Assembly (NCBI GenBank): GCA_021199305.1
Contig: JAJQIH010000037.1
Coordinates: forward strand, 1-64,000
Length of the DNA: 64,000 nucleotides
Direction: 5' to 3'
Source: Ruminococcus sp.
Lineage (GTDB): Bacteria; Bacillota; Clostridia; Oscillospirales; Ruminococcaceae
Shown here piece after piece: positions 327 through 18,783 of the stretch; within the stretch, counting starts at the first letter, position 1, and every line of letters begins with the position of its first letter. A program made the position numbers and the translations under genes. A model generated the notes under the pieces. That model was not told where the DNA came from. It was given only the letters and a program-made list of their open reading frames with translations, and searched no databases.

Positions 327-2303
327 ATGTCTTTTAAGAAAAAATTCTTGAGCGTAGTTTCCGCTTTGGCTTTTGGTGCAACCTGTCTTACAGGCTTAAC
401 CGCCAGTGCCGCTGACGCTAACACGCTTTTAGAGAATCTGGATGTTTCAGGCGGATATTCTTATATTGATACCTATTACACTTCTACCTATTATGCTAAA
501 AGTGCTTTTGAGATTCAATATGAGTATGTTTCCATAGATGACGATGGAGAGTATTACGACAGAGATACTGATGAACTAACTGCTATTGACTATTCTGATA
601 CCTTCGAGTTTCTTGTTTTTGACACAAGCTGGGGTGGCTGGAACGCTACCAAAGTAGGTGTATCAGAAGCTGAGGAAGGCACTGTTTATACAGCAACAGT
701 GTCAATTTCGGGTATTGAAAGTAAACTTGATACAGGGTTATCGCCTTATGGCATTAACCTTGAAACTGGCAGAATTGGCGATACTAAAGTCAGAATTATA
801 TCTCTGAAATATGTAAACGATACTTCTGTTGAAAGCTCAAATCTTGAAGCATCCGGAAGCTGGGTTAAAGGAACAGGCGGCACTATGGAAGTAACATCAG
901 GAACTGCTACCGTTTCCTTTGATGAATGGAAAATCGACATTTCCAAGCTTTGCGTATATAGCTTTACCAATCCAACGATTGATGTAACAGTTAATTACGA
1001 AACAGCGCCGAACGATTACGTTCAGGCGGAAATTCTCGACAACCAAGGAAATCCAATCGTCTCAAATTACCCTTACGTTTCTGAATCGGGAAAGGTTACC
1101 TATACGACCGAGTTCGATAGCGACCTCACAGCGTTATCTCTTTGCTATGATAGCTGTACAGTAACTACTATTAAGATTTACGACAATACAGACGGAAATA
1201 CCGAATATTCTGTATCAGGTAAATCAGCAACTGAGATAGCAAACGATATGGGAATGGCTTGGAATTTGGGAAATGCCCTTGACTGTGTAAACAGCGAAAC
1301 TGGTAAGGTTGATGAAACCTGCTGGGGAAATCCTGTTACTACCAAAAAGCTTATTCAGGCTGTTAAGGAACAGGGCTTTAACACGATAAGGATTCCAATC
1401 TCCTATCTGGATAAGATTGTAGAATCTACTGAGAACGGTTCTGCAACCTATACTGTTGACGACGACTATCTCGCCAGAATCAAGCAGGTTGTTGATTATG
1501 CTTATGATATGGGTATGTATGTTGTAATTGATATGCATAACGACGGCGGAGAAGGCGTAACAGGAAAATGGCTCGATATTACTAAGTCGGGCGACGAGTT
1601 TACAGAAATTGTAGACAAATACTCAGATGTATGGACAGATATTGCAACATACTTTGCAGATTATGACCAGAAGCTTATATTTGAAGGCTTTAATGAGCTG
1701 ATGAACGGCAATTATAGCGATACGCCGGCTGAAGACTCGTATTTGTATACTAATATAAATACATTGAATAATGCCTTTGTAAGCGCAGTACGCTCGACAG
1801 GAGACGACACTAATGACGACCGTATCCTTATCGTAGCGGGTTATAACACTGATATTGATTGCACTATAACAGGCTTTGACGTACCTGAAGATTCATCAGA
1901 AAACAAATTGATGCTCTCAGTTCATTATTACAGTCCTTATGACTTTGTTCTTAATGAAAGCGGAACATCAAGCTATACTTCTTCTGATTTGTCATCTATG
2001 GCAACCTCAATCAGTAATATTTGTTCGTTTGCATCAAAATCGGGTATGCCTGTATTTATTGGCGAGTACGGTCCTATAGATAAGACCAATACTACTGCAA
2101 GAGCAGAGTATTGCTATTATCTGAATTATTATGCGGCTAGTAACTCTGATGCTACTGTAGTATTGGCATTCTGGGATAATGGAGTTACCACGACCTATGG
2201 CTCTGGTCTCTTTAACAGAACTTCCAATACTGTAACCGATACAGGTTCTACAATAATCAGTTATATTAAAGCAGGGTATAGTTGTTCATCTATACCCTCA
2301 TAA
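327..2303 (+). CDS. Secreted glycoside hydrolase family 5 (cellulase/endoglucanase-like) with N-terminal non-catalytic region
   Basis: N-terminal signal peptide (MSFKKKFLSVVSALAFGATCLTGLTASAADA); GH5-type motifs MGMAWNLGNALD, IRIPISY, FEGFNELMN (NE acid/base region), VHYYSPYDF, FIGEYG; RBS AAGGAGG upstream of ATG 327. Confidence 0.75.
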   Translation: MSFKKKFLSVVSALAFGATCLTGLTASAADANTLLENLDVSGGYSYIDTYYTSTYYAKSAFEIQYEYVSIDDDGEYYDRDTDELTAIDYSDTFEFLVFDTSWGGWNATKVGVSEAEEGTVYTATVSISGIESKLDTGLSPYGINLETGRIGDTKVRIISLKYVNDTSVESSNLEASGSWVKGTGGTMEVTSGTATVSFDEWKIDISKLCVYSFTNPTIDVTVNYETAPNDYVQAEILDNQGNPIVSNYPYVSESGKVTYTTEFDSDLTALSLCYDSCTVTTIKIYDNTDGNTEYSVSGKSATEIANDMGMAWNLGNALDCVNSETGKVDETCWGNPVTTKKLIQAVKEQGFNTIRIPISYLDKIVESTENGSATYTVDDDYLARIKQVVDYAYDMGMYVVIDMHNDGGEGVTGKWLDITKSGDEFTEIVDKYSDVWTDIATYFADYDQKLIFEGFNELMNGNYSDTPAEDSYLYTNINTLNNAFVSAVRSTGDDTNDDRILIVAGYNTDIDCTITGFDVPEDSSENKLMLSVHYYSPYDFVLNESGTSSYTSSDLSSMATSISNICSFASKSGMPVFIGEYGPIDKTNTTARAEYCYYLNYYAASNSDATVVLAFWDNGVTTTYGSGLFNRTSNTVTDTGSTIISYIKAGYSCSSIPS

Positions 2304-2408
2304 AGAAAGAAAGGTTTCTTAAGAAATCCCTCCGCTTGTTTACGGCGTCTTTTATGGCGAAGTAAAATTACAAAACGGAGGGATTTTTTAATTTTTTAGG
2401 TGACTCAT

Positions 2409-4961
2409 ATGAAAAAAATATTGTGTTCAATATTGTCATTTGCCATAATGTGTATGTTGTTCAGCTCTATTATACCTGCGTATGCGGACGATTATTTGAC
2501 TGAAGGGGATTGGACATATTCGGAAGAGGGATCTCTAAGAGGATACAATGGTACGGTTGTTGAAAACTTGACCTTACCGACACAGCTAGGCGGTGTTACC
2601 TTAACGGGCACCGCCTATACTTTTTATAATAATGGTTCATCATATAACTTTAATAACGAAGTTGTTTCTGTAATAATACCGGAAGGCTATACGTTAGTTG
2701 GCACTAACACATTTTATGGATGCACAAAGCTAAAAACCGTGGAGATACCAGAGGGCGTTACAAATATATCAACTTATGCACTGAGGAACTGTGTTTCGCT
2801 GGAAAGCGTCACACTCCCTTATTCTGTTGCTAAACTTATGGGTAGTTGCTTTAGCGGTTGCACAAATGAAAATTTAATTATTGATATCAAAAGAACAGAA
2901 ACCTTCACAACCTTGAACAGCACAGCGTTCTCGAATGTGGTAGGTACTATTTATGTATACTCACAGGAAGTATATGATCAAATTTCAGCAGTAGCTACAA
3001 CGGCAACGGTTATTTTAAAAGAAGAGGAAATAGACACTTCCGAGCTTGAAGCAGCAATTACAGCAGCAGAAGCTATCGATACAAGCGTTTATACAACGGC
3101 AAGCTTAGCGACATTAACCGACGCCGTTACAGCAGGTAAGACAGTTCTTAACAACGAAGACGCAACGCAGACAGAGATTAACAACGCAGCAACAGCTATA
3201 ACCGATGCAATTGATGCGCTCGTAACCCTTTTAGCTGAAGCGATTGAAAACGCAGAGTCGGCAATTGAAGCGGCGGAAATGATTGATACTACAAATTGTA
3301 CAGAGGATAGCGTAGCAGCGTTGACAGCGGCTATAGAAGCGGCAAAAACAGCGATAGCTGACGAATCGGCGACTGCTGATTCAGTTGAAGCGGCTGTAGA
3401 AGCGGTAAACGCGGCAGTAGCAGAGCTTGAAGGCGTAATTTACGTAACCGAAGATGAAGAGCTATACAACTCGATTTCATCAGCGGCAACAAGCGCAACG
3501 GTAATTTATGTAGCAGAGTCAGGTTTAAGCGGTCAGGTTCTGGCTAACATCTATTATGGTGGCAATACGTTATATCAGATTGCAACAGGAACAGCAGGTT
3601 CTGACATTGCAGGAGCGACAAGCGTCAAAGTATACTTTGACTGCGCGTCCGATGTAAGCTACAATCCATATGCATCGATTGATTTATATGCGGTAGTAAA
3701 TTCGACGCAAAACTACGCACAGATTGCAGGAACAGACAGCTCCTACTCGTCAGGTACAACAGGCTGGTCGGAAACTCTGTCGCTTGAAAATGCGATAGCA
3801 GAAGGCGACACATATACAATTTCCGGAGCTACATGGTCATGGAGCGGAGCGGAAGATTACGTATATGCAGTAACTAAGGTAGAGTTTTTGGATGACTCTG
3901 GCGCTGTACTGGCAACAATTGACCCGAACGTAGCTAACGACCTGACAGAGTTAAAGGCAGCGATAGTAGAAGCTGACGCCGTTGACGAAACAGTTTATAC
4001 AGACAACAGCGTAGCTACAATGAATGAAGCTCTCGCAGCAGCTATAACAGTTATTGGTAACGCAGATGCAACTCAGGATGAAGTTGACGCAGCAACAGCA
4101 GCTTTGACAGCAGCAATTGCTGGCCTTGTTGACACTTCAGACCTTGAGGGAACAATCGCAACAGCGGAAGATATTGATACGTCGGCGTTTACGCCATCGA
4201 GCGTAGCGGCAATGACCGAAGCACTTGAAAGTGCAAAGGAAACGCTTGCAAACGCAGACGTAACACAGGACGAAGTAAATGCGGCGGTAGATGCTCTGAC
4301 AGAAGCGATTAACGGCTTGACAGAGCTTGCTGACACAACAGATCTTGTAACTGCAATCGCAGATGCTGAGACAGTTGATGCAACCCTTTACACATCTTCA
4401 AGCGTAGCTGACTTAACAGCAGCACTCGAAGACGCAAAGACAGTTCTTGACAATGCAGATGCAACTCAGGACGAAGTTGATGCAGCAGCATCAGCTTTGA
4501 CAAGCGCAATCAACTCACTTGTAAGCGCATACTCGATAACTGGTACTGTATACGTTTCAGATTCTGATACAGAAACGACAATGACAGTAGCAGTAACTCT
4601 TGCAGATGGCACAGAGGTTTCAGCAGAAGCTACAAGTATGGGTGAGTACGCAATTGAAGGCTTGGATGCAGGCACTTACACAATCACAATCAGTGGTGGT
4701 AAATATGCTCCAAGAAGCTATGAAGTTGAAGTTTCGGAAAGCCTGACACAGGACGTTTACTTAAATCCATACGGAGATGTAAACGGTGACGGCAATGTAA
4801 CAACAGCAGATGTTGGACTTGCAAATAGCCATGCAAAGAACGTTACACTTCTTGAAGATTACGAATTTGTTTGCGCAGACGTAAATCTTGACGGAAGCGT
4901 AACAACAGCAGACGTTGGAAAGATCAACAGTCATGCTAAGGGCGTAGTAGCTCTATGGTAA
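2409..4961 (+). CDS. Secreted cellulosomal scaffold-like protein: BspA-type leucine-rich repeats, about 6-7 FIVAR helical repeats, CarboxypepD_reg-like domain and C-terminal type-I dockerin
   Basis: Signal peptide; LRR segment (VVSVIIPEGYTLVGTNTFYGCTKLKTVEIPEGVTNIS...); repeated 60-65 aa units with YT..S...L..A...AK..L.N.DATQ.EVDAA..AL..AI..L (FIVAR pattern); duplicated Ca-binding dockerin segments DVNGDGNVTTADV and DVNLDGSVTTADV at the C-terminus. Start moved to ATG 2409 (GGTGA 6 nt upstream). Confidence 0.75.
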   Translation: MKKILCSILSFAIMCMLFSSIIPAYADDYLTEGDWTYSEEGSLRGYNGTVVENLTLPTQLGGVTLTGTAYTFYNNGSSYNFNNEVVSVIIPEGYTLVGTNTFYGCTKLKTVEIPEGVTNISTYALRNCVSLESVTLPYSVAKLMGSCFSGCTNENLIIDIKRTETFTTLNSTAFSNVVGTIYVYSQEVYDQISAVATTATVILKEEEIDTSELEAAITAAEAIDTSVYTTASLATLTDAVTAGKTVLNNEDATQTEINNAATAITDAIDALVTLLAEAIENAESAIEAAEMIDTTNCTEDSVAALTAAIEAAKTAIADESATADSVEAAVEAVNAAVAELEGVIYVTEDEELYNSISSAATSATVIYVAESGLSGQVLANIYYGGNTLYQIATGTAGSDIAGATSVKVYFDCASDVSYNPYASIDLYAVVNSTQNYAQIAGTDSSYSSGTTGWSETLSLENAIAEGDTYTISGATWSWSGAEDYVYAVTKVEFLDDSGAVLATIDPNVANDLTELKAAIVEADAVDETVYTDNSVATMNEALAAAITVIGNADATQDEVDAATAALTAAIAGLVDTSDLEGTIATAEDIDTSAFTPSSVAAMTEALESAKETLANADVTQDEVNAAVDALTEAINGLTELADTTDLVTAIADAETVDATLYTSSSVADLTAALEDAKTVLDNADATQDEVDAAASALTSAINSLVSAYSITGTVYVSDSDTETTMTVAVTLADGTEVSAEATSMGEYAIEGLDAGTYTITISGGKYAPRSYEVEVSESLTQDVYLNPYGDVNGDGNVTTADVGLANSHAKNVTLLEDYEFVCADVNLDGSVTTADVGKINSHAKGVVALW

Positions 4962-5405: not shown

Positions 5406-5432
5406 TTTTCGCAAAGTATCTTAATTGACGAA
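5406..5432. repeat. Left 27-bp inverted repeat (IR-L) of the recombinase-containing invertible segment
   Basis: ttttcgcaaagtatcttaattgacgaa is the exact reverse complement of 6704..6730. Confidence 0.9.
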
Positions 5433-5461: not shown

Positions 5462-5490
5462 ATTATATATGGTGTTGTCGGATTTGTCAA
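5462..5490 (-). promoter_or_regulatory. Perfect consensus sigma-A promoter (TTGACA-17-TATAAT) on the minus strand inside the invertible segment, currently firing outward through IR-L into gene-free DNA
   Basis: Plus strand 5462-5467 attata (rc TATAAT), 17-nt spacer, 5485-5490 tgtcaa (rc TTGACA). Confidence 0.6.
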
Positions 5491-6703: not shown

Positions 6704-6730
6704 TTCGTCAATTAAGATACTTTGCGAAAA
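6704..6730. repeat. Right 27-bp inverted repeat (IR-R), ending 3 nt before the RBS of the first TIR gene
   Basis: ttcgtcaattaagatactttgcgaaaa, the reverse complement of 5406..5432. Confidence 0.9.
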
Positions 6731-6746
6731 TATGGAGGTAATTAAA

Positions 6747-9215
6747 ATGGCAATCATAAAATGTAAAATGTGCGGCGGAGATATGGAAATCAATGAGGAG
6801 AAGTCTTTTGGCGTCTGCGAATACTGCGGAAGTACAATGACCTTGCCTAAAATTGATGATGAACAAAGGCTTGCTGCCTTTAATCGAGGAAATTATTTCA
6901 GACGTATTGGCGAATTTGATAAAGCTATTTCAATTTTCGAGCAGATTGTTGCCGAGGACGATACCGATGCCGAAGCGCATTGGTGCTGTGCGCTTTGTCG
7001 GTTTGGTATTGAATACGTCGAAGATCCTGCTACCCTTGAATGGCTGCCAACCTGTCACCGTGTGAGCTTTGATAGTTTTCTGGAAGACGTTGACTATCTG
7101 GCTGCTGTGGAATATTCAGACGGCATCACTCGCCGACAATATCAGAAGGATGCAGCTAAAATTGCAGAGGTTCAAAGAGGAGTTCTGGCGACAAGTCAGA
7201 AGGAAGAGCCTTTCGATGTCTTTATTTGTTATAAGGAAAGCGATGAGAACGGCCAGCGTACCGTAGATTCCACTCTCGCTCAGGATATTTATTACCAGCT
7301 TACCGAAAAGGGCAGGCGGGTGTTCTTTGCACGTATTACATTGGAGGACAAGGGCGGAGCTGAATACGAGCCGTACATATTTGCTGCGTTAAATAGCTCC
7401 AAGGTAATGGTTGTCGTTGGAACTAAAACTGAAAACTTCAATGCTGTCTGGGTTAAGAACGAGTGGAGCCGTTTCTTAAGCCTGATGAAAAAGGACCATT
7501 CAAAGCTGCTGCTGCCTTGCTACAGGGATATGAATCCTTATGATTTGCCTGACCAGCTTTCAGTTCTTCAATCTTACGATATGAGCAAAATCGGTTTTAT
7601 TCAGGACCTTATAAGAGGCGTAGACAAGGTTCTGGACGCTGGAAAGCAAACTGAAACTAAAAAAGAAACCGTCGTCATTCAAGGCGAAGGCGGCGGGAAT
7701 ATTTCCGCTTTGATAAAGCGTGGAAATATGTCGTTGGAGGACGGCGACTGGGATAAGGCTCAGGAGTTCTTTGACAGGGTTCTTGATAATGATGCTGAAT
7801 GTGCGGAAGCTTATCTCGGTAAGGCTTTGGCTGATATGAACCTTGCAAACCTTGATGCGTTTGAATACAGATATTTGCCGAAAGCAGATAATATCGAACC
7901 GACTGAACTGCAAGCTTACGTTCCGAATCAGAAAGAGCGGGAAGAAAAGCTTGCCGAAGAAAATGAAGTTCCGTACCAGCTGACAAAGGAAGACATACAT
8001 AATATCTGCACATTCGATTTTTCTTATCCAAGCCGTGTGAGCCGCTATAAAGAGGAAATGAACGCTGCTCTTGGAAAATTTCAAAACCGTAATTTTAAAA
8101 GAGCGGAGGAATATGCAAGCGGTAAATTCAAAATGCAGATAGAAGCTTTCAAGAGCGACACAAACAATAAAATGAAAAAGGCGTTGAAGGCTCTTGAAGA
8201 CGAGGATGCGCAATCGCAAAAGAATATCTGCGAGCGATATGATGAAGCCTTTGCAAAATGGGAAGAGCAAGCTGCACAAATGCGTACAACCGCCGAAGCT
8301 AAAAGAGAAGATGTATATCAAAGGGCAGTTTCAGCATTTGAAAAAGAAGAAGATAACTATAAGGCATTAGATTTATTTCAAAGAGAAGTAATAATAGATT
8401 ACAAAGACTCAAAAGAATATATAGGAAAAATTAAAAAACTCGAAAAAGAGAAAGCTGAACAAGTAGAAAAAGCAGAGAAGGAGAGAAAAGAAGCTTTACA
8501 GCAAAAAGAGAAGGAACGAAAGAAGAAAATCAAAAGAATCAAAATAAGTATAAGCTGTGTTGCTGTCGTAATAGTTTTTGCAGTTGTATTATTTACGGTG
8601 ATTATCCCGTCTATTAAGTATAACACAGCTATGAATTATTATCAAGACGGTGATTATGAAAAAGCTTATACTGCATTTGAGGAACTGGGCAGTTTTGGAG
8701 ATGCAAGCGATAAGATAACTGAAATAGCAGAAAAATATCCTAAAGTTATATGTGAAATGGCAGAGGACGGAGATATTATTAAATTTGGCAATTATAGTTG
8801 GATAGTTTTAGAAAAGACAGATGACACAATGCTGATTATCACAGAAGATGTTATTAAGGATAGAGTCTATAATGAGGAGTATGAAGATATAACATGGGAG
8901 GATTGCACACTTCGCGAATATCTGAATGGTTCATTTTATAATAGATTTTCAGAAGGAGAAAAATCAATGATAGCGGAAACAACCTTATCGGATAACAATG
9001 ACATAGTAGACAAAATTTTCCTATTAAGTTTAGAAGAAGCAGAGGAGTATATGACAGAAGATGAACGGGCTGCTTCCGGTTGGTGGTGGCTGCGGTCGCC
9101 TGGCGATACTCATTCTAGTGCGGCGGGAGTCTATTTCAACGGTGTCGTCGATACAAATGGTTGTGCTGTTGACGCTAAGGGTGGCGTTAGACCCGCTTGT
9201 TGGATTACTTTTTAA
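6747..9215 (+). CDS. Receptor-like multidomain TIR protein A: N-terminal C4 zinc ribbon, TIR domain, TPR repeats, coiled-coil, one TM helix, C-terminal WWLRSP (DUF6273-type) domain
   Basis: CKMCGG...CEYCGS zinc ribbon; TIR hallmark DVFICYKESDENG...VFFARITLEDKG...SKVMVVVGTKTENFNAVWVKNEWSRF; TPR-like EDGDWDKAQEFFDRVLDNDAECAEAYLGKALA; hydrophobic ISISCVAVVIVFAVVLFTVIIPSI; C-terminal WWLRSPGD...GGVRPACWITF. Start moved to ATG 6747 (GGAGG 8 nt upstream). Confidence 0.75.
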   Translation: MAIIKCKMCGGDMEINEEKSFGVCEYCGSTMTLPKIDDEQRLAAFNRGNYFRRIGEFDKAISIFEQIVAEDDTDAEAHWCCALCRFGIEYVEDPATLEWLPTCHRVSFDSFLEDVDYLAAVEYSDGITRRQYQKDAAKIAEVQRGVLATSQKEEPFDVFICYKESDENGQRTVDSTLAQDIYYQLTEKGRRVFFARITLEDKGGAEYEPYIFAALNSSKVMVVVGTKTENFNAVWVKNEWSRFLSLMKKDHSKLLLPCYRDMNPYDLPDQLSVLQSYDMSKIGFIQDLIRGVDKVLDAGKQTETKKETVVIQGEGGGNISALIKRGNMSLEDGDWDKAQEFFDRVLDNDAECAEAYLGKALADMNLANLDAFEYRYLPKADNIEPTELQAYVPNQKEREEKLAEENEVPYQLTKEDIHNICTFDFSYPSRVSRYKEEMNAALGKFQNRNFKRAEEYASGKFKMQIEAFKSDTNNKMKKALKALEDEDAQSQKNICERYDEAFAKWEEQAAQMRTTAEAKREDVYQRAVSAFEKEEDNYKALDLFQREVIIDYKDSKEYIGKIKKLEKEKAEQVEKAEKERKEALQQKEKERKKKIKRIKISISCVAVVIVFAVVLFTVIIPSIKYNTAMNYYQDGDYEKAYTAFEELGSFGDASDKITEIAEKYPKVICEMAEDGDIIKFGNYSWIVLEKTDDTMLIITEDVIKDRVYNEEYEDITWEDCTLREYLNGSFYNRFSEGEKSMIAETTLSDNNDIVDKIFLLSLEEAEEYMTEDERAASGWWWLRSPGDTHSSAAGVYFNGVVDTNGCAVDAKGGVRPACWITF

Positions 9216-9233
9216 AAGGAGGTAAAAAGTGCA

Positions 9234-10184
9234 ATGGCAAAACATAAGCAAGTCTTATTATTAGGAAATGGAATCAATCGGGCATTTGACGGATTTTCCT
9301 GGCAGGAATTGCTTGCAATGTTAAGCGAAAGCTATAGTAAGGAAGACGTGGAAAAGCTTGAATCCCCCGCACCCCTGCAAGCGATTCTTGTAACCCGTGA
9401 CCACGTTGACACTGTATTGAAAGAACACAAAAAAGAGCTGTTTGGAACTGTAAATTCAGAACAAAGAGAAATTTTGCGGAAACTACTTTCTATTAAATTT
9501 GATGCAATTCTGACAACCAATTACAGTTATGAGCTTGAAATCGCAGCTCAGGAAAAAATATCCGATTCTGGAATTTCCGAATACAGGCTGAAAAAATTAT
9601 TGCGCCATAGCGACAGTGTCAAACAGGCGGAACCTCGGTACTCGTTATATACATATAATGAAGTTTCTTATAATGGTGTACAGAATAAAATATGGCATAT
9701 ACACGGAGAAGCCCGAAAACCGAGCAGCATTGTTTTAGGACACTACTATTATGCAAATTATATCGGCAAATTGCACGACCTCAACCAATCCCGGGAAAAT
9801 GTATATTCACGCAAACAGAAAGCGGGCGAAGAATTTTCTATAAAAAGCTGGTTTGACGCATTTGTTTTAGGAGATGTGCACGTACTGGGTTTTGGATTTG
9901 ATTTTTCGGAAATGGATTTATGGTGGCTTTTAAATCGAAAAAAGCGAGAAAAAGCCGACCACGGAAAAGTCTGCTTTTATGATGCAAAAGCTTCAGAAGA
10001 AAGCTCTGATTTAAAAGAAAAGTATGACTTGCTGAAAATGCTGGGCGTAAAATTATGCCTGGAAGAAACAGAACCAAATAATGATTGGAAATCATTTTAT
10101 TGGAAAGCGATTGAAAAAATCGAACAATCAATTAAAAGACAAGTTAAAGAAACAATGAAAGAGGAGGAACTCATTTATGTCTGA
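9234..10184 (+). CDS. SIR2_2-family (sirtuin-like, predicted NAD+-consuming) protein, short form without a SLOG sensor domain
   Basis: VLLLGNGINRAF...SWQELL; ILTTNYSYELE (TTNY box carrying the catalytic Asn of ThsA-type SIR2); IWHIHGE...IVLGHYYY (HG His). RBS AAGGAGG; 8-nt overlap with the next gene. Confidence 0.7.
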   Translation: MAKHKQVLLLGNGINRAFDGFSWQELLAMLSESYSKEDVEKLESPAPLQAILVTRDHVDTVLKEHKKELFGTVNSEQREILRKLLSIKFDAILTTNYSYELEIAAQEKISDSGISEYRLKKLLRHSDSVKQAEPRYSLYTYNEVSYNGVQNKIWHIHGEARKPSSIVLGHYYYANYIGKLHDLNQSRENVYSRKQKAGEEFSIKSWFDAFVLGDVHVLGFGFDFSEMDLWWLLNRKKREKADHGKVCFYDAKASEESSDLKEKYDLLKMLGVKLCLEETEPNNDWKSFYWKAIEKIEQSIKRQVKETMKEEELIYV

Positions 10185-12033
10185 ATTCGCAATTGAATGC
10201 CCGGTTTGTGGCAAATACGTAGAAGCAAAAACAGGAATTTTCGCAAGTAAGCAAATCGCTTGCTCTTGTGGAAATATTATCAATGTTAAAACTGACAAGC
10301 TCACGACAAGAAAGTGTGAGCATTGTGGAAATGTGGTTGTTTACGACCAGTCCAAGAGCAAATCAAAATGTATCTGTCCGGTTTGTCATACCGAGATAAA
10401 TACGCTTGCCAATAAGCAGCAGGAGGCAGAGTTTTCTTGCGCTCAATGCGGAATAAAGCTTTCAACTATAAAAAGCGCAACAAAGTATACCTGCCCTGTT
10501 TGTGATTATGAAAACGACGTTCAGGAGTGCCTGGCGAAAGAAAAAATCAAGCACGACGGACTTGCGAGCATTATAAAGTTTGAAGGGAATAACGATGCAC
10601 TTGTATGGAAGCATCCGATTGAGGACTTCAATCTCGGCTCGCAGCTGATAGTACATGAAAGCCAGGAAGCGATATTCTTTAAGGACGGACAGGCGTTAGA
10701 CCTTTTCGGCCCTGGCAGATATACGCTTGAAACCCAGCAGCTGCCGTTGCTTGAAAAGATATATAAGCTTCCGACAGATACTGAGGGAACATTCCATTCC
10801 GAGGTTTACTTTATAAACAAGACCGTTCAGATGTCAATAAGGTGGGGAACACCCGATAAGGTACGCTTTATTGACCCGCTTACAGGCGTTCCGCTATCAT
10901 TAGGCGCATCAGGTGAGATGAATTTACAGGTTTCAAATGCCAGAAAGCTGATTGTCAAGCTTGTAGGAACGATGAATGGTATTGCCTGGGAAGATGAGGA
11001 GGGCTTGTCAAAATCCCTTCAGAAATCCTTCCGCCCGCTGATAGTAAATGCAGTCAAGACAAATCTGCCGTCTGTTATAAAAAGCGAAGCGATTGATATT
11101 TTGGAAATAGACGAAAATCTGGATATTATTTCACAAAGCTTGCGAAAGAAGATTTCAGCAGGCTTTGAGGAGTACGGTCTGACAATTCCTCAATTTTATG
11201 TGACAGCAGTTGTACTTCCTGAGGAAGACCCGAACTTCAAGAGAATACGTGATTTACATACTATTACTCTGCAAACCAGAGTAATTCAGGCTGAGGCGAC
11301 AGTAAAAACAGCGCAGGCTCAAAGCGAAACGCAATATCGCACAGCTCAGGAGCAAAGCAAGGCTGCTATCGAAGAAGCAAGACGACAGGCGGAGCTGCAG
11401 CGCCAGACTACCGAAACAGAGGTAGCAAAAAGAGAAGCAGAGCGTACTGTTATTGCGGCGCAAGCCGAAGCGCAGGCAGCCAGAATGGCAGGACTTACCG
11501 AAGCTGAGGTTATGAAAGCCAAAGGCTACACCGAGAAGGACGTATTGCAGGCCGAGGTTCAGAAAGCTTACGCTGCTGGACTTGGCGAAATGGGTTCTGG
11601 CGGTGGAATAAATGTCGGCGGCGGCAGCAGCGTTATGGGCGATATGCTTGGTATGGGAATTGGACTTGCAGCAGCTGGAGCGGTTGCTCCGCAGATTGGC
11701 AATATGATGCAGGGACTGAATCCGAACGCACAAAATAACGCCGCAGGCACGAATACTGATAACGCTCCTCAGCCTGATACGTGGGATTGCTCCTGCGGTC
11801 AGAAAAATATAGTTGGAAATTTCTGTAATAATTGCGGCTCAAAGCGACCAACGCCCGAGGGGGAAGAAACCTGGAATTGCAGCTGCGGAAAGACAGGCAA
11901 TACTGGTAAATTCTGCTCAAATTGTGGAGCTAAGAGAGCTGACGACGCTCAGGCTACATGGGATTGTAGCTGTGGAAAGACAGGTAATACAGGTAATTTC
12001 TGTAATAATTGTGGAAAGAAGAAGGAGAACTAA
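10177..12033 (+). CDS. Zinc-ribbon-rich SPFH/Band-7-like protein with flotillin-like coiled-coil, Gly-rich hydrophobic segment and three C-terminal zinc ribbons
   Basis: At least four N-terminal CxxC...CxxC pairs; central Band-7-like region (FKDGQALDLFGPGRYTLET...IRWGTPDKVRFIDPLTG); Q/A/E-rich coiled-coil (QAEATVKTAQAQSET...AQAEAQAARMAGL); C-terminal WDCSCG...FCNNCG repeated three times. Confidence 0.55.
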   Translation: MSEFAIECPVCGKYVEAKTGIFASKQIACSCGNIINVKTDKLTTRKCEHCGNVVVYDQSKSKSKCICPVCHTEINTLANKQQEAEFSCAQCGIKLSTIKSATKYTCPVCDYENDVQECLAKEKIKHDGLASIIKFEGNNDALVWKHPIEDFNLGSQLIVHESQEAIFFKDGQALDLFGPGRYTLETQQLPLLEKIYKLPTDTEGTFHSEVYFINKTVQMSIRWGTPDKVRFIDPLTGVPLSLGASGEMNLQVSNARKLIVKLVGTMNGIAWEDEEGLSKSLQKSFRPLIVNAVKTNLPSVIKSEAIDILEIDENLDIISQSLRKKISAGFEEYGLTIPQFYVTAVVLPEEDPNFKRIRDLHTITLQTRVIQAEATVKTAQAQSETQYRTAQEQSKAAIEEARRQAELQRQTTETEVAKREAERTVIAAQAEAQAARMAGLTEAEVMKAKGYTEKDVLQAEVQKAYAAGLGEMGSGGGINVGGGSSVMGDMLGMGIGLAAAGAVAPQIGNMMQGLNPNAQNNAAGTNTDNAPQPDTWDCSCGQKNIVGNFCNNCGSKRPTPEGEETWNCSCGKTGNTGKFCSNCGAKRADDAQATWDCSCGKTGNTGNFCNNCGKKKEN

Positions 12034-12034
12034 A

Positions 12035-12721
12035 ATGAAGAAGAGTAGTTTAAAAGGATATTTAATCATAGCCATTATTTTAATAGTATTCAGCGTGGTA
12101 GCATTTTTACCGCCATTTTCAAAGACAGCAGTATTTTTTGTAGCATATTGCTTCGGACTGATTTCTATATTGTCGCAAATTTATTTCTTCAAGACCTCAT
12201 TTAGCGGCGAAGGCGCAAAGAGCAAATTTTACGGCTTCCCGATTGCCAGACTAGGAGTTATTTACCTGGTTGTTCAGCTTATTTTAAGTCTGCTTGAAAT
12301 GGTATTTGCAGCTTTTATTCCTCTGTGGGTTGTGCTTATTGTAGATATAGTCGTTACAGGAGCAGCTGCTATCGGTTGTATCGCGGTAGACACTATGCGG
12401 GAAGAAATCGTTCGACAGGATAACGTTCTCAAGAAAGACGTATCTGCTATGCGGGAGCTCCAATCCTTAGCAGCAGTGTTGCAGAGCCAATGCGATAACG
12501 ACGAAATGAAGGAGGATATAAAGAAAATATCCGAAGAGCTCAGATTCAGCGACCCCGTTTCGTCCGAAAAGTCCGCAATACTCGAAAAGAGATTATTGGT
12601 GCAGCTGGGCGAAATACAAAATGCTATGCTTGCGGGCGATGCAGAAACTGTAAAAGAAATGTCTGAAAAGGCGCTTGCAAATTTAACAGAGCGAAACAGA
12701 ATCTGTAAATTGAGCAAGTAG
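12035..12721 (+). CDS. Small integral membrane protein (about 4 TM helices) with alpha-helical cytoplasmic tail
   Basis: RBS AGGAGAA plus ATG 12035 one nt after the upstream stop; hydrophobic stretches IIAIILIVFSVVAFL, VFFVAYCFGLISILSQIYFF, IYLVVQLILSLL, IPLWVVLIVDIVVTGAAAIGCIAV. Confidence 0.6.
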   Translation: MKKSSLKGYLIIAIILIVFSVVAFLPPFSKTAVFFVAYCFGLISILSQIYFFKTSFSGEGAKSKFYGFPIARLGVIYLVVQLILSLLEMVFAAFIPLWVVLIVDIVVTGAAAIGCIAVDTMREEIVRQDNVLKKDVSAMRELQSLAAVLQSQCDNDEMKEDIKKISEELRFSDPVSSEKSAILEKRLLVQLGEIQNAMLAGDAETVKEMSEKALANLTERNRICKLSK

Positions 12722-12765
12722 AAGAATATAACGAAAATTATTTAGCCGAGAGGAGAATTTGATTT

Positions 12766-14874
12766 ATGGCTGTTTTTAAATGTAAGATGTGCGGAGGAAT
12801 GCTTGAAGTCACGGAGGGCGCAAAAATCTGCGAATGCGAATACTGTGGAAGCAAGCAGACTATTCCGTCTGTAAACGAGGAAAATCTGCGGAGCCTTTTT
12901 AACAGAGCTAATGTTCTCAGAATGAGGGGCGAGTACGATAAAGCCGCAGATATTTATGAGAAAATCATACAGGCTGATGAAACAGAAGCTGAGGCGTACT
13001 GGGGATTGGTGCTTTGTAAGTACGGTGTGGAATATGTTGAAGATCCAGCAACCTTAAAGCGGGTTCCAACCTGTCACAGAACGTCCTTTGACGCTGTTAT
13101 CACAAGCGAAGATTACAGCAAGGCGATAGAATACGCAGATATAGCTCAAAAGAGTATCTATGAGTCGGAAGCTAAAGCTATTGATGAAATCCAGAAGGGA
13201 ATACTTAACGTAGTATCCTCTGAGGAACCGTACGACGTATTTATTTGCTATAAGGAAGCTGACGAAAATGGAAAGAGAACTCACGATAGCGTAATTGCAA
13301 ATGACATTTATCACCAATTAACGCAGGAGGGCTTTAAGGTCTTTTATGCGGCAATTACCCTCGAGGATAAGTTAGGAAGCGAATACGAGCCTTACATATT
13401 TGCGGCTTTGAATTCGTCGAAGGTTATGCTGGCGATTGGTACAAAGCCTGAATACTTTAACGCTGTGTGGGTAAAAAACGAGTGGTCTCGCTTTATGAAA
13501 ATTATGCGAACCGACCGAAGCCGCACGCTTATCCCTTGCTATAGAGATATGGACGCTTATGAGCTGCCTGAAGAATTTGCTCACCTGCAGGCTCAGGATA
13601 TGTCAAAAATCGGCTTTATAAACGACATTATCAGGGGAATAAAAAAGATAGTGGTAATACCTGAGATGGCAGGCGGAAATGTTTCCAATGGATCAACGGT
13701 TCGCAGACTGGATAAAGCCACAGCGGCAAATGTTGAAGCTTTACTGAAAAGAGCTGACATATCTCTTAACGACGGCGAATGGAAAAAAGCGGATGAATGC
13801 TGCGAGAAGGCTCTTGATTTAGATCCTGAAAATGGGCAAGCCTATTTAGCAAAGCTGATGGCGCAGTTAAAGCTACATAATGCGGAGGAGTTTCAAACTC
13901 GTGTGGGAACAATAGAGGGGTATGAATATTTTAAAAAGGCACAACGCTTTGGCGATAATGAACTAAAGGCAAAGCTTGAGGAATATGACAATCAGGGTGT
14001 CTATAATGAAGCGATAGAAAAAATGCAGAGTGCAAAAGACGCACAGACTTATCGAGAAATAAAGGATGTATTAGAGCGACTTGGAAATTTTTCTGGTGCT
14101 TCTGAAAAGGCTGAGGAATGTGAAACTTTAGCCTTGAAGTGCTTGAAAAAACGCAAACGGCGCAAGCGGAGAATAATTAGTATTCTTTGTAGCGTGGTTG
14201 TACTTGCTATAGTGTCTAAATTGGCAATTGATAAGGTGATTATTCCTTACTGCGAGAATCGTGAAATTTACAATACAGCGATGAATTATTATGAAAGCGG
14301 TGATTTAGGAGCTGCTTATAATATTTTTGTGGAACTGGGCGATTTTAGTGACTCAAAAGAAATGATAAATAAGGTATGTTCAAAACTCAGCAACGGAGAT
14401 ATTATAGAATTTGGTGATTATAGCTGGATTGTTTTAGAAAAATCGGATGACACAATGCTAATTATCACAGAAGATATTATTGAGGATAGAGCCTATAACG
14501 AGCAGAAAGAAGATATAACATGGGAGAATTGCACACTTCGCGAATATCTGAATGGGTCATTTTATGATAGCTTTTCAGAAGAAGAGCAATCAATGATAGT
14601 AGAAACAAATCTAACGAATCCTGACAATTCAAAATGTGGCACAGACGGTGGTAATGATACAACAGATAAGATATTCCTATTAAGCTTAGAAGAAGCGGAA
14701 GAATATATGACAGAAGATGAGCGAATAGCTTCTGATCGGTGGTGGCTGCGTTCGCCCGGCGGTATTCAGGATCATACGGCGGTAGTCTCTATCAGCGGCG
14801 TCATCGGTACGAATGGCTTTTATGTCAATTATGAGTATGGTGTTCGTCCCGCCCTCCGTCTGAAGCTTAGTTAA
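12766..14874 (+). CDS. Receptor-like multidomain TIR protein B (paralog of 6747..9215): zinc ribbon, TIR, TPR, TM helix, C-terminal WWLRSP (DUF6273-type) domain
   Basis: MAVFKCKMCGG...CEYCGS; DVFICYKEADENGKRT...VFYAAITLEDKLG...SKVMLAIGTKPEYFNAVWVKNEWSRF; TM IISILCSVVVLAIVSKLAI; C-terminal WWLRSPGG...GVRPALRLKL. Confidence 0.75.
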   Translation: MAVFKCKMCGGMLEVTEGAKICECEYCGSKQTIPSVNEENLRSLFNRANVLRMRGEYDKAADIYEKIIQADETEAEAYWGLVLCKYGVEYVEDPATLKRVPTCHRTSFDAVITSEDYSKAIEYADIAQKSIYESEAKAIDEIQKGILNVVSSEEPYDVFICYKEADENGKRTHDSVIANDIYHQLTQEGFKVFYAAITLEDKLGSEYEPYIFAALNSSKVMLAIGTKPEYFNAVWVKNEWSRFMKIMRTDRSRTLIPCYRDMDAYELPEEFAHLQAQDMSKIGFINDIIRGIKKIVVIPEMAGGNVSNGSTVRRLDKATAANVEALLKRADISLNDGEWKKADECCEKALDLDPENGQAYLAKLMAQLKLHNAEEFQTRVGTIEGYEYFKKAQRFGDNELKAKLEEYDNQGVYNEAIEKMQSAKDAQTYREIKDVLERLGNFSGASEKAEECETLALKCLKKRKRRKRRIISILCSVVVLAIVSKLAIDKVIIPYCENREIYNTAMNYYESGDLGAAYNIFVELGDFSDSKEMINKVCSKLSNGDIIEFGDYSWIVLEKSDDTMLIITEDIIEDRAYNEQKEDITWENCTLREYLNGSFYDSFSEEEQSMIVETNLTNPDNSKCGTDGGNDTTDKIFLLSLEEAEEYMTEDERIASDRWWLRSPGGIQDHTAVVSISGVIGTNGFYVNYEYGVRPALRLKLS

Positions 14875-14888
14875 AACAGCACAAAACA

Positions 14889-14960
14889 TTTTTTTGGTGT
14901 AAAAAGTGTGGAGGATTACATTTTTTCGGTGTAAAAAGTGTGGAAGATTACATTTTTTCG
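14889..14960. repeat. Two-and-a-half tandem copies of a 32-bp unit (T6-7 + cggtgtaaaaagtgtggaRgattaca) directly upstream of a promoter
   Basis: Seen directly; T-tracts are phased at 32 bp. Confidence 0.8.
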
Positions 14961-14989
14961 TTGCATTTTTTGTATAAGTGTGCTATAAT
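14961..14989 (+). promoter_or_regulatory. Sigma-A-type promoter TTGCAT-17-TATAAT for the DUF4143 ATPase gene
   Basis: Sequence match; ends 30 nt before the start codon. Confidence 0.55.
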
Positions 14990-15019
14990 ATACCCATAAT
15001 ATACTTTGGAGGTGGGCAT

Positions 15020-16336
15020 ATGTATAGAACCGCAATAGAAAAGCTGCTGAAATGGAAAGAAAGCAAGCACAGCAAGCCGCTTATTATCGAGGGAGCCAGA
15101 CAGGTCGGTAAAACCTGGTTGATGAAGGAGTTCGGAAGGCAGGCTTATTCCAGCACGGTATACATTAACTTTGATTCTAATTCACAAATGGCGGAGCTGT
15201 TTTCGTCTGACCTGGACACAAGCCGCATAATTATGGGATTGGAGCTGTACGCTGGCAGCAAAATAGACCCTGAAAATACGCTTTTGATTTTCGATGAGGT
15301 TCAGGAGGTTCCCAGAGCGCTTTCCTCGCTCAAGTATTTTTGTGAGGACGCTCCTCAATACCATATCGTTTGTGCAGGTTCGCTTTTAGGTATTGCATTG
15401 CATGAGGGTACTTCATTTCCAGTAGGAAAGGTGGATTTTTTAAAGCTTTATCCTCTTTCTTTTGTTGAGTTTTTAATGGCGGTCGGCAAGGAACGCTATG
15501 CAGAATTGCTCGCAAGACGAGATTTCGATATGATTTCCGCTTTTAAACAGACATATATTGACGCTTTGAAGCAATACTATTTTGTAGGCGGTATGCCCGA
15601 GGCTGTTCAAAGCTTCGCAGAGGATAATGATTTTAACGAGGTTCGTGACATTCAAAAACGTATACTTGCGGCTTATGAGCAGGATTTTTCCAAACACGCT
15701 CCTAATGAAATTGTACCGAAAATCCGAATGGTCTGGAACAGTATTCCTTCTCAGCTTGCCAAAGAGAACAAAAAGTTTATTTACGGCCTTGTCCGTGAGG
15801 GAGGACGTGCAAAGGATTACGAAACCGCAATTATGTGGCTGACAGACTGTGGTCTTGTTCATAAGGTCAGCCGTGTTAATGCGGCTGGTATTCCCTTGAA
15901 GGCTTACGAGGATTTAAAAGCGTTCAAGCTGTATGTTGTTGATGTTGGCCTTCTCGGATGTATGACTGGACTTAACCAGCATACATTGTTAGATGGCAAC
16001 GATCTTTTTGTAGAATTTAAAGGAGCATTAACAGAACAATATGTTTGCCAGCAGCTTAAAGCAATTGACAATTTGAATATTTACTATTACACTAACAGCA
16101 GGAACTCGTGCGAAGTTGACTTTGTCGTTGACACAGGAGTTCAGATTGTTCCTGTAGAGGTAAAGGCTGAGGTGAACCTTAAGTCAAAAAGTTTAAAGAC
16201 ATATTGCGAGAAATACTCTCCTCAAATTGCTGTTCGCACTTCAATGGCGGAATACAAAAAAGAAAATTGGCTTTTAAACTTGCCATTGTATGCAATATCC
16301 TGCTTTAATATGGTAGATGACCTTTCCGTTTTGTAA
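15020..16336 (+). CDS. AAA-family ATPase of the DUF4143 type
   Basis: P-loop LIIEGARQVGKTWL; Walker B LLIFDEVQEV; family typically associated with accessory/mobile regions. Start at ATG 15020 (GGAGG 8 nt upstream). Confidence 0.7.
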   Translation: MYRTAIEKLLKWKESKHSKPLIIEGARQVGKTWLMKEFGRQAYSSTVYINFDSNSQMAELFSSDLDTSRIIMGLELYAGSKIDPENTLLIFDEVQEVPRALSSLKYFCEDAPQYHIVCAGSLLGIALHEGTSFPVGKVDFLKLYPLSFVEFLMAVGKERYAELLARRDFDMISAFKQTYIDALKQYYFVGGMPEAVQSFAEDNDFNEVRDIQKRILAAYEQDFSKHAPNEIVPKIRMVWNSIPSQLAKENKKFIYGLVREGGRAKDYETAIMWLTDCGLVHKVSRVNAAGIPLKAYEDLKAFKLYVVDVGLLGCMTGLNQHTLLDGNDLFVEFKGALTEQYVCQQLKAIDNLNIYYYTNSRNSCEVDFVVDTGVQIVPVEVKAEVNLKSKSLKTYCEKYSPQIAVRTSMAEYKKENWLLNLPLYAISCFNMVDDLSVL

Positions 16337-17508: not shown

Positions 17509-18783
17509 ATGTTTGTAGATATAGCAAGGGTGTTCGTCAAGGCAGGAGACGGCGGCGACGGAGCAGTTTCATTTCACAGAGAAAAATATGTAGCGGCAGG
17601 TGGTCCTGACGGAGGCGACGGCGGAAAGGGCGGAGATATCGTTTTTGTCGCTGACAGCAATATGTCGAACCTTATAGATTTCAAATACAAGAGAAAGTTT
17701 GTCGCTGAGAAGGGTGAAAATGGAAGCAAGAAAAGATGCTACGGAAAAAACGCCCCCGACCTTATAGTTAAGGTCCCTGTCGGAACTGTTGTGTACGACG
17801 ACGATACAGGCAGAATACTCGCCGACATTTCAGACGATACGCCGCAGGTTATTGCTGTCGGCGGAAAGGGCGGAAAGGGAAACGCTCATTTTGCGACCTC
17901 CACCAGGCAGATTCCAAAATTTGCAAAGCCGGGATTTAAAGGCGATTCCTATAACCTTCGTCTGGAGCTTAAGCTTATAGCGGACGTTGGATTGGTTGGC
18001 TTTCCGAACGTCGGAAAAAGCACGCTTATTTCGGTAGTTTCGGCGGCGAAGCCTAAAATCGCCAACTATCATTTTACAACCCTCACACCTGTTTTAGGCG
18101 TTGTAAAGACAAACGATACTTCATTTGTAATGGCGGATATACCAGGACTTATCGAAGGCGCAAGCGAGGGCGTTGGTTTAGGACACGAGTTTTTGCGACA
18201 CGTTGAAAGATGCCGCCTTATAGTTCACGTTGTAGACGTTTCGGGAAGCGAGGGTCGTGACCCGAAGGAAGATTACGAAACTATCTGTCGGGAGCTTGAA
18301 AACTTTAACGAAGAGCTATGTCAGGTTCCAATGCTTGTAGCTGCCAATAAGTCTGATATGGCAACGTCTGAGCAGCTTGACGACTTCAAGCAGTTTATCG
18401 AGCAAAAGGGACTTGATGTTGTAACAATTTCAGCGGCTACCACAAGCGGCACAGACGAGCTTGTCAATAAAATTTCCCAAATGCTCGCAGCCTTGCCGCC
18501 AGTAAAAAGATACGAGGCTCAGCCGCTTACCCGTGAGGAGCTTGACGAAAAGCTCCTTACAAACAAGGACTTCAGCGTAACGGTTGAGGACGGCGTATAT
18601 TTTGTCGAAGCGGATTGGCTTTACGATATTTTACGAGTTGTCAATATGGACGACTATTCGTCATTGCAGTATTTCCAGAGAGTTTTGCAAACGAGCGGAA
18701 TAATTGATAAGCTTGAGCAAATGGGAATCAACGAGGGCGATACGGTTGCAATTTTCGATTTTGAATTTGAATATATGAGGTAG
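17509..18783 (+). CDS. obg: GTPase Obg
   Basis: MFVDIARVFVKAGDGGDGAVSFHREKYV...GGPDGGDGGKGGDIVF; G-domain GFPNVGKST. Confidence 0.9.
   Translation: MFVDIARVFVKAGDGGDGAVSFHREKYVAAGGPDGGDGGKGGDIVFVADSNMSNLIDFKYKRKFVAEKGENGSKKRCYGKNAPDLIVKVPVGTVVYDDDTGRILADISDDTPQVIAVGGKGGKGNAHFATSTRQIPKFAKPGFKGDSYNLRLELKLIADVGLVGFPNVGKSTLISVVSAAKPKIANYHFTTLTPVLGVVKTNDTSFVMADIPGLIEGASEGVGLGHEFLRHVERCRLIVHVVDVSGSEGRDPKEDYETICRELENFNEELCQVPMLVAANKSDMATSEQLDDFKQFIEQKGLDVVTISAATTSGTDELVNKISQMLAALPPVKRYEAQPLTREELDEKLLTNKDFSVTVEDGVYFVEADWLYDILRVVNMDDYSSLQYFQRVLQTSGIIDKLEQMGINEGDTVAIFDFEFEYMR

Follow-up and report, generated by a model that had tools for sequence, protein, structure and literature searches.

Introduction

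TIR-based defence against phages is well established, and TIR NADases are generally activated by oligomerisation, as is the case for SARM1, plant TNLs, TIR-STING, TIR-SAVED, and SPARTA. Lectin-fold domains diversified by diversity-generating retroelements (DGRs) have been proposed as antigen-sensor modules of NTPase-centred conflict systems in multicellular bacteria (PMC7159879, PMC8195603, PMC10907252). DUF6273, a C-type-lectin-like domain, is the usual DGR target in phages of gut Firmicutes, where the variable region (VR) lies at its C-terminal end (PMC10743442, PMC11792537, bioRxiv 10.1101/2024.10.15.618418). In Bacillus subtilis, YdjI, a protein of the Band_7_1 family, is a soluble zinc-finger protein that neighbouring membrane proteins tether (PMC8581546). 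Here, we analyzed a stretch of 64,000 nucleotides from Ruminococcus sp. (contig JAJQIH010000037.1, positions 1 to 64,000; hereafter, the window), in which two paralogous genes, termed gene A and gene B, encode proteins that combine a TIR domain with a C-terminal DUF6273 domain. Both are named in NCBI only as "DUF6273 domain-containing protein [Ruminococcus sp.]". A first-pass annotation made from the DNA letters had proposed that gene A encodes a receptor-like protein with a sensor outside the cell and a TIR domain inside.

Results

Domain architecture of the gene A product

The gene A product was first read as a zinc ribbon, a TIR domain, TPRs, and a K/E-rich coiled coil, followed by a single hydrophobic helix and a DUF6273-type domain. 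Pfam searches and an AlphaFold2 (AF2) model bore out these assignments, and the listed motifs DVFICY, WVKNEW, WWLRSPG, and GVRPA were all found in the product. Pfam matched DUF6273 to aa 692-821 (E = 6e-25) and TIR_2 to aa 158-281 (E = 1e-9), together with several TPR families and, weakly, an N-terminal zinc ribbon with the pattern CxxC...CxxC at aa 6-28. The TIR_2 scores of 39.3 bits for A and 48.4 bits for B compare with a Pfam gathering cutoff of 28. In the zinc ribbon, C9, C24, and C27 were invariant and C6 nearly invariant among 37 homologues. As for the reading frame, a GGAGG motif is located 7 nt 5' of ATG 6747, while the upstream in-frame ATG 6732 has no such motif, indicating that 6747 is the likelier start.

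The AF2 model, built on the 37 homologues, had a mean pLDDT (predicted local distance difference test score) of 83.3. It placed, in order, the zinc ribbon, a helical/TPR region, a flavodoxin-like TIR domain, further TPRs, a 74-residue helix, and a second long helix; after this coiled coil, a helix runs through the hydrophobic segment and leads to a C-terminal beta-rich domain. Using Foldseek, aa ~150-300 were matched to the TIR domains of RPV1, L7, SNC1, RPS4, MyD88, and SPARTA at a probability of 1.00, with a TM-score normalised to the target of about 0.6. Glu239, within WVKNEW, was invariant in the sets of 37 and 50 homologues, and the WVKNEW-type Glu motif was kept in all 149 diverse family representatives. 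In a sequence search of the PDB, Glu239 aligned weakly with the Glu of WCLMEL in the flax L6/L7 TIR (E 0.4-0.6); the same search gave nothing for DUF6273 and nothing useful for the SIR2-like or SPFH protein encoded nearby. As judged from its sequence, the TIR domain carries the conserved catalytic-type glutamate of the W-x-x-x-E helix, as in enzymatic NADase-type TIRs.

Membrane topology of the two paralogs

Next, the membrane topology was analyzed by hydropathy, charge distribution, and comparison with homologues. Kyte-Doolittle values averaged over 19 residues (KD19) showed a single transmembrane (TM)-grade segment in the gene A product, with a maximum of 3.23 at aa 602-620, whereas the next best value anywhere in the protein was 0.92. 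An N-terminal signal peptide was looked for in the same product, and none was found. Thus, the hydropathy scan agreed with the first-pass annotation on the one hydrophobic helix and on the lack of a signal peptide. The paralog encoded by gene B, which is 51% identical to A over the N-terminal 400 aa and 54% identical from the TM helix to the C-terminus, likewise showed one hydrophobic segment (KD19 maximum 2.66) and the same domain order, so that the shared plan claimed for the two proteins was confirmed. In both paralogs, the 15 residues before the TM helix contained eight K/R and the 15 residues after it contained one.

The same arrangement was observed among relatives. One hydrophobic segment was detected in 120/120 of the closest homologues, and the N flank was richer in K/R in all 118 close homologues scored as single-segment. 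In the diverse set of 149 representatives, 86 were single-TM, 85 of them with a K/R-richer N flank, and 39 had no TM segment (KD19 maximum at most 1.61). The TM-less representatives include P0156, P0175, and P0195; P0156 gave a Pfam match to DUF6273, and others carried C-terminal repeats that appeared RCC1-, LRR- (leucine-rich repeat), or ankyrin-like by eye. These TM-less relatives presumably follow the same sensor design in a cytoplasmic form, and the two window proteins represent the membrane-spanning form of the family.

An N-in/C-out orientation is predicted because of the K/R bias and because an N-terminal part of 600 aa, holding a Cys4 zinc ribbon and an NAD-type TIR, has no signal peptide. 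From these sequence features, we consider it probable that the products of genes A and B are type II (N-in/C-out) single-pass proteins with the TIR domain inside and DUF6273 outside. Every computational test, including the K/R bias and the missing signal peptide, favoured the predicted placement of the sensor outside and the TIR inside. The further argument that the C-terminal domain is of a type usually found on secreted or surface proteins held in part. Among solved structures, the one closest to this domain is that of the DUF6273 domain at the N-terminus of an IgA protease that is secreted and sortase-anchored (PMC12402451), and in some relatives PASTA or Big_2 occupies the C-terminal position, both of which agree with the argument. 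However, it was weakened by the TM-less relatives, P0156 with its DUF6273 match among them: as the family holds membrane-spanning and soluble forms, the type of ectodomain is no proof of its location.

Alternatively, the hydrophobic segment may not span the membrane, or its orientation may be reversed, with the whole protein including DUF6273 being cytoplasmic. This would resemble the 39 TM-less relatives out of 149, some of which share C-terminal domain types with the membrane-spanning members, and also the majority of DGR-diversified conflict sensors on record; in addition, AF2 confidence is low around aa 584-606, and the gene B segment holds K485 and D489. Nevertheless, the hydropathy peak of 3.2 over 19 residues stands far above the rest of the protein, and the segment with its K/R-rich N flank keeps its position in hundreds of sequences despite strong divergence of the linkers. 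A reversed orientation would also mean exporting a zinc-binding, NAD-type module of 600 aa that has no signal peptide. We thus regard a cytoplasmic DUF6273 domain as very improbable and the type II placement as the better reading.

DGR-type variable regions in the ectodomains

The ectodomain of A and B is a DGR variable domain, as indicated by the DUF6273 match, the C-type-lectin fold, and a VR at the C-terminal end. The template for comparison came from L001, an orthologous locus in another assembly, whose cluster-mates are named Ruminococcus sp. in NCBI. L001 is syntenic with the window, with nucleotide identities of 91% over window 6704-9162, 96.6% over 9195-13666, and 95.8% over 14854-16336. 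Between its gene B ortholog and its AAA_14 gene, L001 contains bAvd, a 121-nt template repeat (TR), and a reverse transcriptase (RT) gene, in this order. The translation of the TR is WWWLRSPGNNQNNAAEVNSDGDINTNGNNVNNENGVRPAL. Against both receptor 3' ends of L001, the TR showed mismatches at 15 of 35 adenines and at 1 of 86 other bases. This adenine-specific pattern between TR and VR was also observed in L002, L015, L030, L031, and L045, thus in six loci with L001; these five are metagenome-assembled genome (MAG) or metagenome contigs under different taxon labels.

The window VRs were then compared with the L001 TR. VR-A differed at 19/33 adenine positions and 11/83 others (p = 3e-6), and VR-B at 18/33 and 9/83, respectively (p = 2e-6). 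Between VR-A and VR-B, 20 of the 33 TR-adenine positions differed, against 13 of 83 elsewhere. When three gene B orthologs from different samples, at least 94% identical, were aligned, 19 of 27 residues in the VR-B core varied compared with 37 of 676 elsewhere (p = 8e-17). Two of the three strains in this comparison had no DGR adjoining gene B, suggesting that the diversification took place earlier, in trans, or in DGR-bearing sister strains.

A complete local DGR in the window was considered and rejected, as neither RT, Avd, nor TR occurs within the 64 kb; blastn of both receptor 3' ends against the window returned only the paralog and no TR-like repeat. Compared with L001, the DGR cassette is missing exactly at window position 14853/14854. 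The window VRs are two different fixed variants, which remain there because the cassette is absent. Loss of the DGR by simple VR/TR recombination was not supported, since a window-type gene B tail lies after the RT gene in L001; for the same reason, the cassette and the 3' portion of its target seem to have been inserted or exchanged en bloc. A 32-nt tandem repeat (2.3 copies, 95% match) located just 3' of gene B, at window 14886-14960, also occurs downstream of the L001 RT gene (~20560-20640), along with the copy of the window-type gene B tail.

In L001 itself, the two VRs (12373-12494 and 18294-18415) were 100% identical to each other, and both contained a 1-nt insertion relative to the TR, which leads to a premature TAA and to gene calls of 809 and 744 aa. 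The identity of the two could result from gene conversion, a shared faulty homing event, or collapse during MAG assembly.

As to the distribution of DGRs, a cassette or its remnant was always found directly 3' of a TIR-DUF6273 gene, usually the last of an array. Of the 38 DUF6273-type loci whose downstream sequence extends for at least 2.5 kb, 8 contained Avd and/or RT; no locus in which DUF6273 was not detected had either. Among phage sequences, those closest to the L001 RT were the DGR RTs of gut phages, namely nd12 (48%) and the Faecalibacterium phages Lelie and Toutatis (40%), which diversify DUF6273 receptor-binding proteins (PMC10743442; PMC11792537). The best phage match of the window DUF6273 domain was in phage nd4.

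A constant module with interchangeable C-terminal domains

The family to which A and B belong was surveyed using the N-terminal 300-aa module, which retrieved 3,884 clusters (50% identity) at E 1e-30 or better. Among the best 150 of these roughly 3,900 clusters, the module was 51-82% identical to that of gene A and was N-terminal in nearly all, in proteins ranging from 310 to about 1,900 aa. The C-terminal domains of 50 sampled members comprised DUF6273 (12), RCC1-like (8), LRR_5 (2), ankyrin (2), FGE-sulfatase (1), PASTA (1), and Big_2 (1). Such a plan, in which the cytoplasmic module is constant and the distal domain can be exchanged, is typical of a family of sensors. With one genome taken per species, at least 585 matches were confirmed, nearly all in MAGs of gut and rumen Clostridia, covering hundreds of species of Oscillospiraceae, Lachnospiraceae, Ruminococcus, and Christensenellales. 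These proteins are annotated only as "TIR domain-containing" or "DUF6273 domain-containing". On the viral side, only two relatives were found in the 2.9 million viral contigs of IMG/VR; a phage origin of the family was rejected on this ratio to the matches in species-representative genomes.

Some loci contain tandem arrays of four to six receptors. L003 (1416-21246) and L042 hold five or six TIR-TM-DUF6273 paralogs with no DGR nearby, which suggests germline-encoded receptor diversity as an alternative to a DGR.

A surface adhesin diversified by a DGR could have a similar ectodomain. In that case, DUF6273 would bind ligands of the host, the diet, or neighbouring cells (glycans, IgA, or plant fibre), and the TPR, TIR, and coiled-coil regions would serve as a mere anchor or as a link to the SPFH scaffold, with no immune signalling. 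Other cellular DGR targets behave in this manner; moreover, the structurally closest domain belongs to the gut-bacterial IgA protease noted above (PMC12402451), the genes next to the locus encode cellulosome-type surface proteins, and no known defence-system model matches. However, the Glu motif retained in 149/149 representatives and the conservation of the entire 300-aa module exceed what an anchor needs, the TM-less and presumably cytoplasmic relatives share this module, and arrays of up to six receptors in a strain-variable island fit conflict systems. Taken together, we consider the adhesin explanation unlikely, and a sensing role for the receptors is preferred.

Operon structure and conserved partner genes

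Gene A, a SIR2_2-like gene, an SPFH gene, a gene for a protein with about four TM segments (4-TM), and gene B follow each other on one strand and are tightly packed, with gaps or overlaps of at most 44 nt. To see which of them are conserved, 83 loci were collected by tblastn, and presence was counted over the 48 loci of at least 15 kb. SPFH was present in 41/48, the 4-TM protein in 37/48, the SIR2-like protein in 5/48, an integrase in 2/48, and AAA_14 in 1/48. In nearly all loci having the pair, the 4-TM gene came directly after the SPFH gene. The conserved co-directional core thus consists of SPFH, the 4-TM protein, and then one to six receptor genes, and on this census the SIR2-like, AAA_14, and integrase genes were rejected as core components.

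The SPFH protein contains two or more CxxC...CxxC zinc ribbons at its N-terminus and three tandem zinc-finger repeats, TW(D/N)CSCG...N(F)C(N/S)NCG, at its C-terminus; the latter look like RanBP2-type zinc fingers. The 228-aa 4-TM protein gave no family match in Pfam, PADLOC, NCBIfam, or PHROG. A 302-aa ORF (open reading frame) starting at TTG (11813-12721) overlaps the end of the SPFH gene; most likely, the real 4-TM gene is the one for the 228-aa product from ATG 12035, as called in L001, L084, and L087.

The SIR2-like gene lies upstream of SPFH whenever SPFH is within the retrieved stretch, and L084 has in its place a gene for a 308-aa protein with no Pfam match. The SIR2-like protein contains the stretches GNG, TTNY, and HIHG, which we take to resemble the NAD-site motifs of defence SIR2 proteins. 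A Thoeris-like system, in which the membrane TIRs would act as ThsB-like sensors making a cyclic ADPR-type signal and the SIR2-like protein as the NAD-depleting effector, was considered on the basis of these stretches and of the tight operon in which TIR genes flank the SIR2_2-family gene. Gene B also matched the Thoeris type III protein ThcB4 weakly in NCBIfam (E 8.5e-5, 21.5 bits against a cutoff of 220). Nevertheless, the SIR2-like gene is confined to 5 of the 48 long loci, while SPFH and the 4-TM protein are near-universal. In Pfam, the SIR2-like protein showed no SLOG, Macro, or other recognised signal-binding or sensor domain beyond its SIR2_2 core, and PADLOC gave no ThsA/ThsB match; hence the combination that defines Thoeris, a ThsB-type TIR and an effector with a signal-binding domain, was not found at the window locus. 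A survey of 29 predicted Thoeris configurations names no SPFH, lectin, or zinc-ribbon component (bioRxiv 10.64898/2025.12.03.692087). A Thoeris-like mode of action is therefore rather improbable, and we continue to read the SIR2-like protein as an accessory to the SPFH, 4-TM, and receptor core.

Invertible segment and genomic island

Upstream of gene A, two 27-nt inverted repeats (IRs) enclose a tyrosine recombinase gene and a consensus promoter. The repeats are intact in the window, L001, L084, and L087, and the whole segment is inverted in L001 compared with the other three. Accordingly, the promoter points leftwards and away from the operon in those three, whereas in L001 it occupies 9900-9928 of the + strand and is directed at the gene A ortholog, which lies 73 nt farther downstream. 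By its sequence features, the segment qualifies as a putative phase-variable promoter switch (inverton). Reading the integrase as part of a prophage or an integrative and conjugative element was rejected, because the recombinase lies between the 27-nt IRs and flips between strains and because the island site is fixed.

This site was the same in all strains, extending from the gene for a dockerin protein to the rplU-obg operon (or the ParE/Phd pair preceding it). Within it, the strains differ in having a PADLOC candidate gene, a ParE/Phd pair, or a DGR. The AAA_14 gene was next to receptors in 1/83 loci, and a ParE/Phd toxin-antitoxin pair replaces or joins it in sister strains (L084 and L001), indicating that the right end of the island is strain-variable. 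Upstream, window 327-4961 encodes a GH5 cellulase with a signal peptide and a surface protein with LRR_5, FIVAR, and dockerin domains, which fit a cellulolytic Ruminococcus. The coordinates of the features are summarized in Table 1.

Table 1. Features of the receptor locus, in window coordinates (K+R, lysine plus arginine in the 15 residues N- and C-terminal to the TM helix)
Feature	Position	Strand	Basis or remark
Left 27-nt inverted repeat	5406..5432	.	Perfectly complementary to 6704-6730
Consensus sigma-70-type promoter, TTGACA-17-TATAAT	5462..5490	-	12/12 match; points out through left repeat
Tyrosine recombinase gene inside segment	5605..6669	+	Pfam Phage_integrase E 5e-25, Phage_int_SAM_3; PHROG integrase
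Right 27-nt inverted repeat	6704..6730	.	Ends 16 nt before gene A start codon
Gene A, zinc ribbon-TPR-TIR-TPR-coiled coil-TM-DUF6273 receptor	6747..9215	+	822 aa, intact ORF
Gene A Cys4 zinc ribbon, aa 1-32	6747..6842	+	Four short strands in AF2 model
Gene A TIR domain, aa 156-296	7212..7634	+	Pfam TIR_2, Foldseek, Glu239 in WVKNEW
Gene A K/E-rich long helices, aa 431-585	8037..8501	+	Predicted coiled-coil stalk, cytoplasmic side; AF2 helices 459-532, 555-585
Gene A single TM helix, aa 598-621, preceded by KKKIKRIK	8538..8609	+	KD19 max 3.23
Gene A DUF6273 / C-type-lectin-fold ectodomain, aa 672-822	8760..9212	+	
VR-A, DGR-type variable region (WWWLRSPG...GVRPA)	9079..9194	+	TR-adenine-biased mismatches
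SIR2_2/AbiH-like protein, 316 aa, accessory operon member	9234..10184	+	Pfam SIR2_2 E 7e-6
SPFH (Band_7_1) protein, conserved partner	10177..12033	+	Pfam E 2e-35; no TM segment
228-aa protein, about 4 predicted TM segments, helical C-terminal tail	12035..12721	+	Hydrophobic segments
Gene B, paralogous TIR-TM-DUF6273 receptor	12766..14874	+	702 aa
Gene B TM helix, aa 470-492, preceded by KKRKRRKRR	14173..14241	+	K+R 8 vs 1
VR-B, DGR-type variable region	14738..14853	+	TR-adenine-biased mismatches
AAA_14/DUF4143 ATPase, neighbour outside conserved system	14978..16336	+	PADLOC candidate PDC-S01, E 2e-194

Discussion

We propose that the receptors act as outside-in TIR conflict sensors with a DGR-type lectin tip, a full model to which we give about an even chance. 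The ligand would be multivalent and extracellular; a phage particle or some other foreign surface structure is the most plausible candidate. Once it binds the lectin tip, the receptors would cluster with the help of the coiled coil and the co-encoded SPFH scaffold, the latter being tethered to the membrane by the 4-TM protein if the analogy with B. subtilis applies. Clustering would bring the TIR domains together, and the assembled TIRs would cleave NAD+, either depleting it or producing a signal; the outcome could be cell arrest or the activation of accessory effectors such as the SIR2-like protein. Expression of the operon would be phase-variable through the upstream recombinase-carrying inverton, and in some strains the adjacent Avd-TR-RT cassette would rewrite the lectin tip by adenine mutagenesis. 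At the level of sequence and gene context, several observations suggest a conflict or immune role for the receptors: their link to DGRs, their occurrence in arrays, an island that varies between strains, and a DGR of phage-like origin.

Several points weigh against this model. A DGR is nearby in only about one fifth of the DUF6273-type loci, and the RTs of L001 and L002 and the Avd of L001 had no tblastn match in the 64 kb of the window. Diversification is not universal either, as the VR was invariant among the 12 sequences of the P0005 cluster, nor is outside sensing, given the 39 of 149 representatives with no TM segment. Only about 10% of loci have the SIR2-like gene. PADLOC gave no known defence-system match for A, B, the SIR2-like, SPFH, or 4-TM protein, and NCBIfam gave sub-threshold matches only. 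The roles given to the SPFH and 4-TM proteins are transferred by analogy from B. subtilis YdjI/YdjH (PMC8581546). Finally, it is difficult for selection to favour a suicidal response tied to a receptor that is diversified at random, except where the arrest can be reversed or kin gain from it. For the broader proposal that gut and rumen Clostridia maintain a repertoire of such outside-in TIR receptors, with a DGR-rewritten tip, phase-variable expression, action at the adsorption stage, and organisation in SPFH scaffolds, we can only be tentative and rate it as possible but doubtful; such a repertoire would correspond, in bacteria, to the clonally diversified immune receptors of cell surfaces.

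If the model is true, a TIR receptor that reads the cell exterior would follow a different logic from the inside-sensing TIR immunity in the literature surveyed. Recognition would occur before genome entry and draw on a diversifiable receptor repertoire, whose binding site could in some strains be rewritten by targeted hypermutation. Such a design would be closer to animal surface immune receptors than other bacterial systems in that literature. As the family is very large and annotated by domain name only, its function would bear on phage-host dynamics in the microbiomes of the human gut and the rumen. Cellular DGRs in Firmicutes gain a concrete, testable target class, SPFH scaffolds become linked to a putative immune receptor, and the idea of a surface-exposed, diversifiable bacterial immune receptor becomes directly testable. 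In open-access papers and bioRxiv, we found no description of a TIR-coiled coil-TM-DUF6273 receptor or its outside-in topology, nor of the partnership with SPFH and 4-TM proteins, the inverton, or the family's size among Clostridia of the gut and rumen.

Compared with known systems, the receptors share the TIR fold, the catalytic-type Glu, and an island-like locus with bacterial TIR defence systems, such as Thoeris ThsB, TIR-STING, TIR-SAVED, SPARTA, and SpbK. These sense in the cytoplasm or respond to nucleotide signals, and none in the literature surveyed has a single-pass extracytoplasmic sensor. Animal Toll-like receptors are also single-pass proteins with an outer ligand-binding domain of repeat or lectin type and an inner TIR, for which ligand-induced clustering is the natural model. 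However, they are type I, with an N-terminal LRR ectodomain and a C-terminal TIR, whereas the protein here is predicted to be type II, with a lectin fold and an enzyme-type Glu that is kept. The reversed domain order noted in the first-pass annotation therefore stands, whereas the comparison itself is an analogy only, since there is no homology outside the TIR fold. Similar to YdjI of the YdjI/YdjH/YdjG set (PMC8581546), the window SPFH protein is of the Band_7_1 type, has zinc fingers and no TM segment, and is encoded next to a small multi-pass protein. The window locus differs from that PspA operon in lacking a PspA gene and in having TIR receptors, not a membrane-repair protein, as partners; the 4-TM protein is likened to YdjH by analogy.

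The phage-borne DUF6273 proteins diversified by DGRs (tentaclins and Mtd-like proteins; nd4/nd12, Lelie, and Toutatis; PMC10743442, PMC11792537, bioRxiv 10.1101/2024.10.15.618418) have the same Pfam domain, C-type-lectin fold, and C-terminal VR. They are virion receptor-binding or decoration proteins with Ig-like domains, whereas the window proteins are chromosomally encoded membrane proteins with a predicted cytoplasmic TIR. Closest in concept are the systems of Kaur et al. 2020, 2021 and Dore et al. 2024 (PMC7159879, PMC8195603, PMC10907252), in which a C-type-lectin domain rewritten by Avd, TR, and RT is fused to effector domains, in a few cases a TIR; several targets can share one TR, and some are predicted to have the lectin domain outside the membrane. 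These systems differ in using STAND, MoxR-vWA, or other NTPases and FGE-sulfatase-type lectin domains, and most of them are predicted to be cytoplasmic. Their hosts are enriched in multicellular cyanobacteria and proteobacteria, whereas the receptors described here occur in unicellular gut and rumen Clostridia, have no NTPase, and combine a direct TIR-coiled coil-TM-DUF6273 fusion with SPFH and 4-TM partners.

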